A stretch of 64,000 bases of DNA, taken from assembly GCF_058153355.1 (NCBI RefSeq), contig NZ_CM177019.1; one strand, 5' to 3'. The notes below the pieces were generated by a model. That model worked only from the letters and a program-made list of their open reading frames with translations. It ran no database searches and had not been told where the DNA came from. A program made the position numbers and the translations under genes. Every line of letters starts with the position of its first letter. Position 1 is the first letter of the stretch. Below, piece after piece: positions 377 through 61,261 of the stretch.

Positions 377-832
377 TCATTCGCTACGGCGGGCAATAAT
401 TTTTAGCGCAGCAATATTATGCGTTTTACGCCGTAACTGATCCAACCGTCTCATCCCTATTCGCCTGTCAGCGGCACGCAGAATATTCACTAACCCCCAT
501 TTATCGCTGGTAAATTGTTTCGTTAACAGCTCCGCTTTTGGGGTATCAATATATTCACGCAATAAATCAGAAATTGAACAAATATCCGTCAGATAAGGAT
601 ACCAGCAAGTTTCACCATGAAAATTACGCACTCCACCATTGCCTGCCATAAAGTCTTTTGGGTAATCCCAGATTACGTCTTTATCCAACGTGATCCAATA
701 ACGTGGTAAATCGGTGCTTCCACCATTTTGGCTGCGCATGGGATAACGGGTACAGTGAATTTGCAGGTTGATCGTTGGCGTCAGTAAGTCATAAATCTCC
801 CTCTGTAACTTGCTCCAGGGGCGTTGTGTCAT
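377..832 (-). CDS. Hypothetical 151-aa protein, second gene of accessory operon (possibly the intact form of the K-12 ykiA remnant)
   Basis: ORF 377..832; start overlaps stop of upstream 762-aa ORF (ATGA at 829..832), suggesting translational coupling; no recognisable motif. Confidence 0.55.
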
Positions 833-3117
833 TGTTTTTCCTCAAGCCGGTTACGCGCTTCACTGCGAATTTGCCGCGTTGCCCCGGTTTTCACTAAATC
901 ACGTAACTGCGAAAGATCGGGCTGATCGACAAATAAGATTAATGATGGATCCTCTTTTAACCACGCCGTTTTCACATCGGCAGCCAACTGTGGATTATTA
1001 ATAGCCAGCGCCCGATCCTGTGACTCAGTCAATGTCGTTAACAAAGAGGCTGGGGTATGTACATTGCGCAACGCCGTCTGCCGCAAATGATCATTGTGAC
1101 TTTTCAGCAATCCGCACCACCATTCATCATCTGATTTATCTTTTATCGTATCCAGCTCCGCAAAAATATCGCTTTCCTCATGATTCCAGCGGAGTAATCC
1201 TCTTTCACTTTGTCTACGGGTGCTATTTTTCATACTGACAACAGACAACGCCCAGTCGGAGTTAAAACGATACTGTTGATCGAGTTTGTTGATAATTCCG
1301 GAGGGTAAATCTTCATTATCAAATAGCTGGTTTCGCATCCGATAGCGGTATTCAGCAGGTAAATAAACCAGTAAATCGATGGCATTATTAAACATCTCTT
1401 CGTCAATAATACCATTATCAATCAGCGCCAGCTGTACTTCGTAGGCTTGCTCTTGATCTTCTTGCCGTTTACTCATCATTAATTTTAAGGTGTGTTGCCA
1501 TAATTGTTTCTTATACTCCAGAGGTAATAATTTATCGCGTGCCAGCTCATACCAGATGCTGGGAATGTCATGCTGATTCAGTAGATAACTAATCACTTCC
1601 TTCGAGGTCAGATAACGCATGCCGTCACGTAAGTTGTGCACATCTTCTTTTGCCAAAGTCAGTTGACGCGACTCCGGCAAAGCGACCAATAACGCCTTCA
1701 CGATATTTTTATTTTCTTTATTATCCAGATACATTTGTTCTGCGATACGTTCAACATCCTCTGTACTCAGGGTCGCTGACAGTTGGGTGATTTTTAGTTC
1801 AGTAAGCGTCCGGGCTAATGCTTGACGAACTTTCAGCGATTTATCTTTACTCAACAACACCGCTTGTTGTGCGGTTAAATCGGCTCCGGTAATTCTTTCG
1901 CGTAACTCCGGATCTTCGCTATTTATCAATTCATCAACCACTGCAGTTGGAACCAGCCAGGCGTAATCGTAATGGCTGATTAATGTCTTGCGCACACTGA
2001 GAAAAGGGCTTTGACTTAACGACACAACAATATCAGGAGAAAGATTATCCTGTCTGGCCTGCTCCAGCTGTATGCTCTCGACGGGTACAGACATTAATTT
2101 TTTATTCACTTCGGCGGATATATTGCTGTTTTTAACCAGTCCTCTGGCAACAGCTTCATCTTTAATTAATTCATCGGTAAGCAAATGCATGTGTTGAGCA
2201 GGCCAGGACTGCGCCATTGATTCACGCGTCTGGTCATCAGGGTGCTGTAACAATTGCAGCATAACAGCGGGTGACAAACGCTCTATATGTGTCAGAAAAC
2301 GTGCCATCAGTGGATCTTCATGCTTTATTTTATCCGCAGGGAAATTGTCGAGTTTACCCGCTTCAATCCACTGTAATTTCTCATTAATTTTAGAATCAGC
2401 TTTATCTCGAAAAACAGGTAACCCCTGAATTATATTATCTGCGACGCTATCATAGTCAGGATACGCATTAAAAATATTATCAGTTTCGATTTCAGTATGA
2501 TCGTAAAAGTCGGGATTCACCAGTGAATAGGCTTTCTTAATATTCTCATCCCAGCTATATCCTTCACCACTTGCATCTTCATTGATATAAAATTCAGCTT
2601 TGATGGACTCAAATTGCGTTGCTTTATCGGAAACAATAATTCCTCGTGCGCTAATTCCCTTCATCACTTCAAAATTATGATCATTATAATCAGCATAAAC
2701 TAAACCTTTTGCTGTCATCTGCCCTTTGACATACGCGAAATCATGATTAATAAAGTTATCGACAATAACATTACCTAGTACAATCAGATGACCATTACCT
2801 GACAGATAATCATCATAATCGCCGGAAATCGTTAAATTACCGTTCACCACCAGTTTATGCTGATTGCTGAAGTTAGTGGGTAATGATAGGTCACCATTAT
2901 GATAATACCAGCGGATATTATCTTTTAGCATATAAGCAGCTTCCATACTATCGTTGGTTGCCGCTTTAACCACGTTGCGCTCATCTGCCGTCATAAGATG
3001 AAAGTCAGAGGTGATAAGGTCCTCGCTACTGATCCACTCTGTGGCACATGCATTGCCAGTCATAAAAAATACGACCATACAGATGACCAATATATTAATT
3101 CTATTCATAATCTTCAC
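829..3117 (-). CDS. Hypothetical exported 762-aa protein: N-terminal signal peptide, beta-solenoid-like N-domain, long alpha-helical repeat region
   Basis: ORF 829..3117; N-terminus [25 protein letters not shown] has n/h/c signal-peptide regions; residues ~85-165 show repeated GN..V.G pattern; remainder is Leu/Glu/Lys/Gln-rich and HEAT-like; region looks AT-richer than flanking genes by eye. Confidence 0.65.
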
Positions 3118-3290
3118 TGATATTTATATCAACCTTGATGAATTATGAATATATCGGAAATCGAAAAAATCGCAGCAAAGGAAATATTATTATGGGTTAA
3201 AGAGAGGATATTTCAGAAAAATGCCCTCCCGTTCATGGGGAAGGCGAGGAATTACAGATAGCGGCACAGATAAGAGGTGGGTTCGGCAAC

Positions 3291-3536
3291 TTACAGATGA
3301 AACTCGCTGTGACCGGGAACATTAAACACCGAACCGGCTTCATACACTTGCCAGTCGGTCGCGTCAGGCAGTAACACATTCAGCGCACCACTGATTACCG
3401 TCATCTCTTCAGGCTCAGCGGTGCTGAAGGTGTATTCGCCTTCAACCATAACACCCACGCTGGCGCGGCCAGTGCTACTGCTGGAAAAGCCGATCGATTT
3501 CACTTTGCCGGAAAAGTACTCATTACTTTGAAGCAT
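3291..3536 (-). CDS. ppnP: Pyrimidine/purine nucleoside phosphorylase PpnP (YaiE), 81-aa form ending at in-frame TAA; 12 further in-frame codons (VAEPTSYLCRYL) follow before a second stop at 3252..3254
   Basis: Translation [17 protein letters not shown]...GHSEFHL matches PpnP; the K-12 protein as I recall is 94 aa ending HLQVAEPTSYLCRYL. Confidence 0.8.
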
Positions 3537-3607
3537 AAACTGGCCCTGTCTGGTAGTTGAACATCTACTTCACTATAGGGGCCAGAGGCGCTGGCTGTCA
3601 CGCAAAA

Positions 3608-4285
3608 TTACACCAGCAATTCCGCAGCTAGCCGTGCAATCAATACGTTAGAGAGCAAGACAGGAACATCGAGCTGTTTTTGCAGTAAATCGCGATGACG
3701 CTGGTTAAATCCCAAACAATCCAGCATGATGACATCTGCGCCTTTTGCCAGTAATTCTTTCCCGGCATCAATGATTTTTTGTTCCGAATCATGAATGGGG
3801 TTACCCAATGAAAATACTGGCGGTTTCTGCAAAATTTGCCATTTTTGCGCCTGAACGGTCAGTAGCTCTTCAACCGGTACGATAACCCCCACCTGATGAT
3901 CTTCAATAATAGAGGAAACCAGCGGTGGCAATATTCGCAACGGCTCAAGAAAGATCGTATTACGCTCAGTCATACTCCTAATGTTTGCTGTACTCATTAA
4001 TATAATGACGTCGTAGCCCTGATTATCGAGCACTTCAACCACACCTTGCAGGTCTCGCTCCACTTTGCGACGCGAAACATGGGCCAGTTGGTTGTCATTT
4101 AATAATGTGAGAATTGTGTCTTCGCCTGCTTCTGGCGCGTACTCTGCCATCACTTCTTCACGGCTTAACTTTCCCAGCAGGCTATGATGGGAAATATTAT
4201 CTTCGTCAATGTATTCTGTCAGGAGCGGCAAAACTTCCTGCATAGGTACAATGCCGATGGTCAGAATCGCCAACGACGCACTCAT
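3608..4285 (-). CDS. aroM: AroM protein
   Basis: 225-aa [19 protein letters not shown]..., recognised AroM; position downstream of aroL-yaiA. Confidence 0.9.
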
Positions 4286-17449: not shown

Positions 17450-20338
<2,889 letters not shown>

Positions 20339-25292: not shown

Positions 25293-25520
25293 GATTGTCT
25301 GCTCCCCTGTCTTGTTATAGGAGCAGTATTTCGTTGCTGGTCAGTTTGATAAAGGAATTAAAACGTCTTGTTAAGAACAAAGCGTTTTTAGAAAAAAACT
25401 GGCAATGGTTAGCGAATATGCGCATTTTGCTATTTTTAACAAACATCGCCTGGTGCAGCGCTCACGCCTCTTATCATGCATACAAATACTGGGGCCGGAT
25501 AAATTTTATGCTCCAATGCT

Positions 25521-27947: not shown

Positions 27948-28160
27948 TCCGCGCACGCCAGCCGGATGCGGCGTGAACGCCTTATCCGCCTACATTTCGC
28001 CCATAAACCGTAGGCATGATAAGACGCGCATAGCGTCGCATCAGGCATCTGCGCACAACTGCCGGATGCGGCGTGAACGCCTTATCCGGCCTACATTTCG
28101 CCCATGAGCCGTAGGCATGATAAGACGCGCAAAGCATCGCATCAGGCATCTGCGCACGAC
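27948..28160. repeat. BIME: two tandem ~105-bp units each containing a REP pair (frmB-yaiL intergenic)
   Basis: gccggatgcggcgtgaacgccttatccg...gtaggcatgataagacgcgc...cgcatcaggcatctgcgcac repeated twice. Confidence 0.8.
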
Positions 28161-30100: not shown

Positions 30101-30400
<300 letters not shown>

Positions 30401-37835: not shown

Positions 37836-38624
37836 GTGGAGCAAATCATGAAAATTACTCAAATTCGTAATGCCACCCAAATTATCCAATACGCTGGCAA
37901 AACATTTCTTATTGACCCGTTACTCGCGCCTAAAGGAAGTTATCCGGGTTTTGCCGGAACGGCACGCGCAGAAATCCGCAATCCAACGGTAGAATTACCG
38001 TGCGATTTAACAACGTTACTCAACGTTGACGCCCTAATAGTGACCCATTTGCATGAAGATCACTGGGACGAAACAGCCTCCCGCGTCGTCCCCAAAGATA
38101 AACAGATTTATGTGCAAAATGAGCAAGATGCTGAATCACTGCATAAACAAGGATTTACGCATCTTACCGTACTTGCCGACGAGACTAAATTTGGCGATAT
38201 TACTCTGCATAAAACGACAGGGCAGCACGGCTCCGATCGCACCTATGCAGACCCGGCTATGGCGAAGCGTTTAGGCGCAGCCTGCGGCGTTGTTTTCCAG
38301 CACCCGACAGAGAAAACGCTCTATCTGGCTGGCGATACCCTCTGGCGTGATGACGTCGAGGCTACAATGCTAACTTTCCAACCAGAAGTGGTGGTGTTGA
38401 ATGCCGGATTTGCGCATGTTCTGGGGCATGGCGCGATAATTATGGGAGCTGAAGATATTCTCAAAACACATTTCACCCTGCCAGAAGCGCAAATTGTCGC
38501 GACACATATGGAGGCCGTAAACCACTGTTTGCTGACGCGTGATGCTCTCAAGGAATACGCCAGAGATAATCAAATTATCGAATTTGTGAACGTACCAGAA
38601 GATGGTGAAACGTTGACATTCTAA
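37836..38624 (+). CDS. Metallo-beta-lactamase-fold hydrolase (accessory, function unknown)
   Basis: 262-aa ORF with THLHEDHWD (HxHxDH) zinc-binding motif; lies between mhpR and lacI. Confidence 0.7.
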   Translation: MEQIMKITQIRNATQIIQYAGKTFLIDPLLAPKGSYPGFAGTARAEIRNPTVELPCDLTTLLNVDALIVTHLHEDHWDETASRVVPKDKQIYVQNEQDAESLHKQGFTHLTVLADETKFGDITLHKTTGQHGSDRTYADPAMAKRLGAACGVVFQHPTEKTLYLAGDTLWRDDVEATMLTFQPEVVVLNAGFAHVLGHGAIIMGAEDILKTHFTLPEAQIVATHMEAVNHCLLTRDALKEYARDNQIIEFVNVPEDGETLTF

Positions 38625-38643
38625 TTCGGAGATAAAGAGTGTT

Positions 38644-39597
38644 ATGCGCCCGCTAACTGTTGCCATTATCGCCGTTGCCGGTTTTAGTCCTTTTCACCTT
38701 TCCGTACCGTTTATCGTGTTTAGCGAAAAAATGGCGGAGAAAAAACGCTTTCATGTAATTATCTGCGCTGAAAAGCCGGGAAATGTGGACTCTGCCGATG
38801 GGTTTTCCGTAACCGCCACCCATGACTATACGGCAGTCATCCAGGCGGATATTGTGATAATTCCTTACTGGGGAACAATTACACAAAAACCGCCACAAAA
38901 ACTGCTGGAAGCCTTAACGACCGCACGAGATAACGGGGCACAGATTGTCGGGCTTTGCCTGGGCACGTTTGTGCTCGGCTATGCAGGTTTACTGAACAAT
39001 AAGCGTGCTGCCACGCACTGGGAGTTCGAGCGTGAATTTCAGGCACGTTTTCCACAAACACATCTGGATATTAACGCGTTGTATGTAGACGATGATGGCA
39101 TTATTACCTCTGCCGGTACTGCCGCGGCGCTGGATTGCTGTTTGTATATTGTTCGGCAACATTTTGGCAGCGACTATGCTAACCATATTGCCCGACGGAT
39201 GGTCGTACCGCCATATCGCACCGGCGGTCAGGCGCAGTTTATAGAGCAACCGGTGCCGAAAAATACCCATGATGAACGCATTAACCTCCTGCTGGATTAC
39301 CTGCGGCAAAACATTACGCAACAGCATGATCTCGACTCGCTGGCTCAGCAAGTAATGATGAGTCGCCGCACACTAACCCGTCATTTTATGAAAGCGACCG
39401 GTTCGAGTATCGCCGAATGGCTCATCACTGAACGCTTACGCCGTAGCCAGGAACTGTTGGGATCCAGTCAGTTGCCCGTTGAGCGGATAGCGGCTGAGGT
39501 GGGTTTTCTCTCACCTGTGACCTGGCGTCAGCATTTTAAATCTCACTTCGGCGTCAGCCCCGCAGAATGGCGCAAAACCTTTCGTGGTATGGCATGA
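38644..39597 (+). CDS. GlxA-family transcriptional regulator (DJ-1/PfpI-like N-domain + AraC-type HTH)
   Basis: 317-aa ORF; N-terminal GLCLGTFVLG nucleophile-elbow-like region, C-terminal AraC HTH (RRTLTRHFMKATGSSIAEWLITERLRRSQELL...); 19 bp after the MBL gene. Confidence 0.7.
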   Translation: MRPLTVAIIAVAGFSPFHLSVPFIVFSEKMAEKKRFHVIICAEKPGNVDSADGFSVTATHDYTAVIQADIVIIPYWGTITQKPPQKLLEALTTARDNGAQIVGLCLGTFVLGYAGLLNNKRAATHWEFEREFQARFPQTHLDINALYVDDDGIITSAGTAAALDCCLYIVRQHFGSDYANHIARRMVVPPYRTGGQAQFIEQPVPKNTHDERINLLLDYLRQNITQQHDLDSLAQQVMMSRRTLTRHFMKATGSSIAEWLITERLRRSQELLGSSQLPVERIAAEVGFLSPVTWRQHFKSHFGVSPAEWRKTFRGMA

Positions 39598-40716: not shown

Positions 40717-43911
<3,195 letters not shown>

Positions 43912-52157: not shown

Positions 52158-52515
52158 ACGCATGATAAGACACGCCTGCGTTGCATCAGGCATTGGTGCA
52201 CGGTGTCGGATGCGGCGCGTGCGCCTTATCCGACCTACGGTTCAGGCCTGTAGGCATGATAAGACGCGTCAGCGTCGCATCAGGCATCTGCGCACGGTGT
52301 CGGATGCGCCGCGTGCGCCTTATCCGACCTACGGTTCAGGCCTGTAGGCATGATAAGACGCGCCTGCGTTGCATCAGGCATCTACGCATAGCTGTCGGAT
52401 GCGGCGCGGGCGCCTTATCCGACCTGCGGTTCAGGCCTGTAGGCATGATAAGACGCGTCAGCGTCGCATCAGGCATTGGTGCACGGTGTCGGATGCGCCA
52501 CAAGACACATCCGAC
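52158..52515. repeat. BIME: about four tandem ~90-bp REP-containing units between codB and prpE
   Basis: Repeated ...gcatgataagacgcg(t/c)c(a/t)gcg(t/c)(c/t)gcatcaggcat...tgtcggatgcg(g/c)cgcgtgcgccttatccgacctacggttcaggcctgtag... Confidence 0.85.
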
Positions 52516-57139: not shown

Positions 57140-57340
57140 TTGTTGTCGGATGCGACGCTATGCGTCTTATCCGACCTACAGTTCAGTTCATCCCGTAGGC
57201 CTGATAAGCCGCGTCAGCGACGCATCAGGCATCGGTTGTCGGATGCGACGTCATGCGTTTTATCCGACCTACAGTTCAGTGCACCCCGTAGGCCTGATAA
57301 GTCGCGTCAGCGGCGCATCAGGCATCGGTTGTCGAATACA
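57140..57340. repeat. BIME: two tandem ~100-bp REP-containing units between prpB and prpC
   Basis: gtcggatgcgacg...cttatccgacctacagttcagt..cccgtaggcctgataag.cgcgtcagcg.cgcatcaggcatcggttgtcg repeated. Confidence 0.85.
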
Positions 57341-60444: not shown

Positions 60445-60628
60445 ATTACGGCTCCAGAGTTGTTATCAAACTATCACCCACCCATATTATTGGGTTGATT
60501 AATAATTAGTTCAGTCAGGGCATAAACGCCAGTAACCGGAAATAAGACACTTTGTGATCTCTCTCGCATCCGATTACTTTTTGTAGAAATATGATGAAGT
60601 TACTTCACTTATTTATGGATGAAATCAC

Positions 60629-61261
60629 ATGGATCCCTTGCACGCCGTTTACCTGACCGTAGGACTGTTCGTGATGACTTTTTTTAATCCGGGAGCCAAT
60701 CTTTTTGTGGTGGTACAAACCAGCCTGGCTTCCGGTCGACGCGCAGGAGTGCTGACCGGGTTGGGCGTGGCACTGGGCGATGCGTTTTATTCCGGGTTGG
60801 GTTTGTATGGTCTTGCGACACTCATTACGCAGTGTGAGGAGATTTTTTCGCTTATTAGAATCGTCGGCGGCGCTTATCTCTTATGGTTTTCGTGGTGCAG
60901 CATGCGCCGCCAGTCAACACCGCAAATAAGCACACTACAACAACCGATTAGCGCCCCCTGGTATGTCTTTTTTCGCCGTGGATTAATTACCGATCTCTCT
61001 AATCCACAGACCGTTTTATTTTTTATCAGTATTTTCTCAGTAACGTTAAATGCTGAAACACCAACTTGGGCACGTTTAATGGCCTGGGCGGGAATTGTGT
61101 TCGCATCAATTATCTGGCGAGTCTTTCTTAGTCAGGCGTTTTCTTTGCCAGCTGTGCGTCGTGCTTATGGGCGTATGCAACGCGTTGCCAGTCGGGTTAT
61201 TGGTGCAATTATTGGTGTATTCGCGCTACGCCTGATTTACGAAGGAGTGACGCAGCGGTGA
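60629..61261 (+). CDS. yahN: LysE-family amino-acid exporter YahN
   Basis: 210-aa membrane ORF MDPLHAVYLTVGLFVMTFFNPGANLFVVVQTSLASGRRAG...; the true start may differ. Confidence 0.8.
   Translation: MDPLHAVYLTVGLFVMTFFNPGANLFVVVQTSLASGRRAGVLTGLGVALGDAFYSGLGLYGLATLITQCEEIFSLIRIVGGAYLLWFSWCSMRRQSTPQISTLQQPISAPWYVFFRRGLITDLSNPQTVLFFISIFSVTLNAETPTWARLMAWAGIVFASIIWRVFLSQAFSLPAVRRAYGRMQRVASRVIGAIIGVFALRLIYEGVTQR

Follow-up and report, generated by a model that had tools for sequence, protein, structure and literature searches.

The ppnP (yaiE) gene in the stretch of Escherichia coli DNA analysed here (64,000 nucleotides of contig NZ_CM177019.1, RefSeq assembly GCF_058153355.1; hereafter the window) is cut short at codon 82 by a premature TAA that differs by a single base from the ancestral glutamine codon CAA. 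With considerable confidence we regard this allele, Q82*, as an ordinary and recent lineage-specific nonsense allele. The single-base mutation is seen directly in alignments with relatives; loss of function and near-neutrality would probably go with it.

Direct reading of positions 3100..3750 places the ATG start codon of ppnP at 3536 on the minus strand. From there 81 codons lead through GGT CAC AGC GAG TTT CAT CTG to the premature ochre codon at 3293..3291, in agreement with the list of open reading frames, in which the truncated frame (M1 to L81 plus the premature stop; 3291..3536, minus strand) appears as 81 amino acids ending in GHSEFHL. Behind the stop, the frame continues with 12 orphaned codons (GTT GCC GAA CCC ACC TCT TAT CTG TGC CGC TAT CTG, encoding VAEPTSYLCRYL; 3255..3290, minus strand) up to the native stop TAA at 3254..3252, which was likewise read directly and confirmed in the alignment to K-12. 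A tblastn search with K-12 PpnP against the window gave an alignment of 94 of 94 residues (3536..3255) that contains one stop and has 98.9% identity; this agreement (93 of the 94 residues identical) is homology, beyond a chance pattern in the letters. Over the 285 nt of the gene, the window and K-12 differ at eight positions, seven of them synonymous and the eighth being Q82*, with no missense change, and the 39 nt 3′ of the premature stop are identical to K-12. Such unchanged DNA behind the stop would be expected if the mutation is recent and the gene had previously been under purifying selection. Most of the original prediction, which had been made from the letters without database searches, is borne out by these data: the coordinates and length of the 81-residue frame, the 12 in-frame codons followed by a second stop at 3252..3254, the tail of the 94-residue K-12 protein and the exchange of a glutamine codon for TAA with the native tail still in frame behind it.

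K-12 PpnP (YaiE, b0391; PF06865 Ppnp/UPF0345; crystal structures 7EYJ/7EYK) occupies the same locus in the same order of genes (aroM–ppnP–...–rdgC). In the window, too, ppnP adjoins aroM, and the window as a whole is syntenic with K-12 from yahK to rdgC, in reversed orientation. The two genes belong to the same Pfam family and share the cupin fold; unlike K-12, the window has TAA instead of CAA at codon 82 and thus encodes an 81-residue product that is missing QVAEPTSYLCRYL.

With respect to the nature of the mutation, the original prediction had assumed a two-base substitution of CAG by TAA. This does not hold, since codon 82 reads CAA in K-12 MG1655 and the nearest complete genomes, and CAA was also found in L001, L002 and strain A31; a single base change leads from this codon to the stop. 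Over 331 nt, Z0117EC0005 and AST85, the closest complete genomes (99.4% identity), show only two differences from the window, one at codon 82 (CAA there, TAA in the window) and one 12 nt ahead of the ATG, at which the window carries the K-12 base. Alignment to reference ppnP, which had been proposed as a check, returns homology over 94 residues with glutamine codon 82 (CAA) turned into TAA. Starting from CAA as the reference codon, a single C>T transition suffices and no double change is needed, and the alignments identify Q82* as this single transition, CAA>TAA, at position 3293 (T on the coding strand; G>A on the plus strand, which carries A).

The allele recurs in every sampled member of the lineage. 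Over 13,536 bp, a contig of GCA_015332025.1 and a Logan assembly contig of SRR28786219 reach 99.978% and 99.993% identity with the window, respectively; both of these sister assemblies have a ppnP identical to that of the window, TAA included. The exact AroM allele of the window, encoded by the neighbouring gene, is found on just five contigs of a collection of 15 billion proteins, and all five encode the 81-residue PpnP; members of the lineage differ from each other by one to three SNPs per 13.5 kb. In the same collection, the exact 81-residue PpnP sequence is recorded on 67 contigs (e.g. EFN3206653.1). As judged from these independent read sets, which support the window's own assembly indirectly through its sisters, Q82* is not an assembly error but is fixed in a rare lineage. 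A comparison across strains of this kind had been suggested together with the original prediction, as had the observation that would speak against it, close relatives whose PpnP also ends in EFHL; such relatives exist solely among members of the same clone, which have the derived allele in common, and not among the complete genomes.

Outside the lineage, the distribution of the allele was assessed with short queries spanning codon 82. A TAA-bearing 43-mer, which is the same in the K-12 and window haplotypes except at the stop and hence tells TAA from CAA, has an exact match in none of the 5,411 matching complete RefSeq E. coli genomes. All of its matches fall into the 95–99% band, the best ones with one mismatch (97.7%), as expected for CAA, and the best matches do read CAA where checked. 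The TAA-bearing 61-mer of the window also has no exact match among complete RefSeq E. coli genomes; for this query, the K-12 haplotype with TAA and the window haplotype with CAA are both one mismatch away and hence indistinguishable. A TAA-bearing 34-mer has no exact match in the GTDB species-representative genomes.

The same CAA>TAA change at codon 82 is, however, present on two other haplotypes in public assemblies, L003 and L006, so that Q82* is recurrent, with independent origins indicated by the different haplotypes. L003 (GCA_965257995.1) has flanks that are 99.978% identical to MG1655. Over 13.8 kb, three SNPs separate it from MG1655 (positions 1312, 5656 and 10244), all of them G:C>A:T and one of them ppnP Q82*, which would be in keeping with a K-12 derivative that is a mutator or has been mutagenised. 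For L006 (GCA_027559675.1 and 17 similar contigs), identity amounts to 99.0% with K-12 and to about 97% with the window. Further truncating ppnP alleles exist in public E. coli and Shigella assemblies: W62* (TGG>TAG) on three haplotypes, E78* (GAG>TAG), C91* (TGC>TGA) and a 12-bp terminal deletion that takes away the last four codons. Like Q82*, these shorten the same 94-codon gene in a single event each, on haplotypes that are otherwise intact and differ mostly by synonymous changes only, and some of them also recur on several backgrounds; several of the truncating alleles L010–L018 are on a ppnP haplotype identical to K-12. They differ in the number of residues removed (13 by Q82*, four by C91* and 33 by W62*), and only Q82* is the one fixed in the lineage of the window. 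Given how deeply the species has been sampled, the few codons that a single step separates from a stop are expected to be hit repeatedly even without selection.

PpnP is a broad-specificity nucleoside phosphorylase and consists of a single Pfam domain. The 81-residue product still matches PF06865 (Ppnp) with 96.1 bits against a cut-off of 25, covering profile positions 2–80 of 92, whereas the restored full-length protein covers positions 2–92; the truncated product thus does not contain a complete PF06865 domain with the C-terminal AEPxxYLCRYL segment. Across 30 Enterobacterales homologues, down to 73% identity, seven of the 13 residues in the lost tail are invariant (A84, E85, P86, L90, C91, Y93 and L94) and V83, Y89 and R92 are conserved in at least 90%, which places the tail among the best-conserved parts of the family by alignment; homologues are almost uniformly 94–96 residues long. 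An AlphaFold model of the restored 94-residue sequence has beta-strands at residues 77–83 and 89–93. Confidence in this model is moderate (mean pLDDT 67.5, below 50 at residues 92–94), yet it matches the crystal structure of E. coli PpnP (7EYJ) with a TM score of 0.80, followed by other cupins. The cupin fold is accordingly assigned to the full-length sequence and not to the truncated product. According to the model, Q82* would clip one strand of the cupin barrel at its end and delete the final strand entirely. Because the conserved tail and the last barrel strand are missing, the 81-residue PpnP is most likely unstable or inactive.

The surroundings of the gene suggest that the consequences would be confined to ppnP. 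A sigma-70-like promoter candidate (GTGACA and TATAGT, 18 nt apart; 3572..3601, minus strand) lies in the aroM–ppnP spacer upstream of ppnP and matches the consensus at 10 of 12 positions, by pattern only. Downstream, a terminator scan picked up, again as a pattern match, an intrinsic-terminator-like hairpin (GCCTTCCC...GGGAGGGC followed by ATTTTTC; 3223..3245, minus strand) with an eight-pair stem including six GC pairs, which begins 7 nt past the native ppnP stop and separates the mutation from the next gene. From these two elements, ppnP appears to be its own transcription unit, and a stop placed 39 nt early should therefore be without polar effect. Direct reading found no start codon in the orphaned tail, and a new promoter made by the mutation was dismissed because the promoter scan lists no site there. 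An Rfam scan of the window returned no RNA element at the ppnP locus; its only matches are naRNA4/REP-type repeats away from ppnP. These seven naRNA4 matches lie in intergenic spacers (28013–28091, 30119–30398, 52253–52424 and 57198–57269), none of them near ppnP, and their positions correspond to K-12 repeat clusters.

Block by block, the window is 92–97% identical to K-12, and over 20 kb its identity to the best complete RefSeq E. coli genome does not exceed 95.9%; because of these values, we assign it to a rare divergent lineage that is without a complete genome in the set. A second disrupted gene is lacZ (40839–43911, plus strand), in which a 2-bp deletion near 41017, at about codon 60 and outside a homopolymer, causes a frameshift that leaves frames of 79 and 968 residues in different reading frames, with no disruption of lacI, lacY or lacA. 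The deletion was found in no complete E. coli genome, the best matches spanning 123 nt for the 121-nt query, and the exact 968-residue product recurs in three independent SRA assemblies; among them is SRR28786219, the run in which ppnP Q82* was found as well. SRR8656992 and SRR31441161 are further assemblies assigned to the lineage for lacZ. Given that the frameshifted lacZ is common to the lineage, its members are probably lactose-negative. Like Q82*, the lacZ deletion is a recent single-event disruption that is present in sister assemblies and absent from complete genomes; it differs in affecting another gene and in being a deletion instead of a transition.

Other loci of the window depart from K-12 in gene content. 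A 1.9-kb segment (37836–39597, plus strand) takes the place of the short K-12 spacer between mhpR and lacI and encodes a 262-residue protein with metallo-beta-lactamase fold (Lactamase_B_2) and a 317-residue regulator combining DJ-1/PfpI with an AraC-type HTH. Between ppnP and rdgC (377–3117, minus strand), the window has an intact 762-residue DUF2773 protein and a 151-residue SF0329-family protein; K-12 retains only the ykiA pseudogene remnant in this interval, and in the closest complete genomes both genes are frameshifted. The autotransporter gene yaiT (17450–20338, minus strand) is one intact frame of 962 residues and is split by IS3 in K-12. At 25330–25495 there is no counterpart of K-12 yaiO, yaiP, yaiS and the IS2-split yaiX, and frmR abuts the upstream region of tauA. 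Finally, yahN (60593–61261, plus strand), which looked disrupted in tblastn, has a stop inside the N-terminal extension annotated in K-12 and an intact frame of 210 residues from an internal methionine; it was not counted as a pseudogene and probably represents a start-site difference and not a disruption.

Several other explanations of the ppnP allele have to be weighed against a genuine single-base nonsense mutation. If TAA were a miscalled base in a genome that in truth reads CAA, its absence from all 5,411 complete genomes would be easily understood; the same allele nevertheless turns up in an NCBI assembly of the same clone and, independently, in the Logan assembly of a separate SRA run, it is on five of five contigs with the AroM allele of the lineage and its 81-residue product is on 67 contigs, which makes a sequencing or assembly error highly improbable and led us to rule out an artefact of assembly. 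An unusual multinucleotide change from CAG to TAA within one codon is hardly credible. Beyond the codon assumed in the original prediction, nothing speaks for it except that the L006 lineage superficially shows two adjacent differences from K-12 (CTT TAA as opposed to CTG CAA). Strain A31, however, combines CTT with CAA in an intact ppnP; for this reason, L006 was not accepted as a case of tandem substitution (GC>TT), and because CTT and CAA coexist in A31, Q82* in L006 can be taken as a single change. As CAA stands at codon 82 in K-12 and all relatives examined, a single C>T transition accounts for every occurrence, and a case with at least two changed bases in or next to the codon, the mark of a tandem substitution, was not encountered. 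Programmed recoding, by which the internal stop would be read through or used to make full-length PpnP, could explain why the tail is perfectly in frame, but after a recent mutation the tail would be expected to be intact as well. The stop, a UAA with G as the next base, lacks conservation, being absent from the 5,411 complete genomes, and no Rfam element lies in the region, so that neither the conserved internal stop nor the recoding signal that define such cases is found here; we consider the probability of recoding to be close to nil. What is found is an in-frame stop in place of a sense codon from which it is one base away, reproducible in the two sister assemblies.

Two further readings accept the nonsense mutation and differ in what it does to the organism. 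The 81-residue protein might still be functional, in which case the allele would be a tolerated C-terminal shortening and not a pseudogene. It keeps 79 of the 92 profile positions with a score far above the cut-off, and the allele persisted while the lineage diversified, but the removed segment holds seven invariant and three nearly invariant residues, in the model, which agrees with the crystal structure, it contains the final strand of the beta-barrel, and the lengths of homologues lie almost uniformly at 94–96 residues. Residual function thus seems unlikely to us. It is also unlikely that ppnP inactivation is adaptive, with convergent selection in some niches behind the repeated occurrence of Q82*, W62* and other truncations. 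The occurrence of both Q82* and W62* on at least three haplotypes each, the existence of the other truncations and fixation in the lineage of the window would fit such selection, but very many E. coli assemblies have been sampled and repeated hits at the few codons that a single transition turns into a stop are expected anyway; moreover, the allele is in none of the 5,411 complete genomes, and several occurrences are on haplotypes identical to K-12 and may represent laboratory derivatives (e.g. L003). Beyond recurrence under very deep sampling, positive support for an adaptive loss was not found. The persistence of the allele during diversification of the lineage fits neutrality, and fits residual function or a selective benefit equally well.

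We therefore favour the ordinary nonsense allele. In this reading, the ancestor of the lineage, which is rare and divergent within E. coli, acquired one C>T transition that changed CAA to TAA; translation now ends 13 codons early and yields an 81-residue product without the AEPxxYLCRYL tail. This product is likely to be unstable or inactive, which would make ppnP a recent pseudogene. Its loss would be tolerated because ppnP is dispensable for growth in the laboratory and E. coli has other nucleoside phosphorylases, namely Udp, DeoD, DeoA and XapA.

The 81-residue product is already in public databases under the name “pyrimidine/purine nucleoside phosphorylase”, and ppnP of this lineage would be better flagged as truncated or as a probable pseudogene than annotated as an intact 81-residue enzyme. 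Together with the 2-bp deletion in lacZ, Q82* can serve as a marker of a rare divergent lineage that has no complete RefSeq genome. The catalogue of ppnP truncations may also be of interest for the engineering of nucleoside-producing strains. An excess of ppnP nonsense alleles, if formally shown, would raise the significance of the finding; as they stand, the recurrent truncations suggest that in nature, just as in the laboratory, ppnP can be dispensed with.
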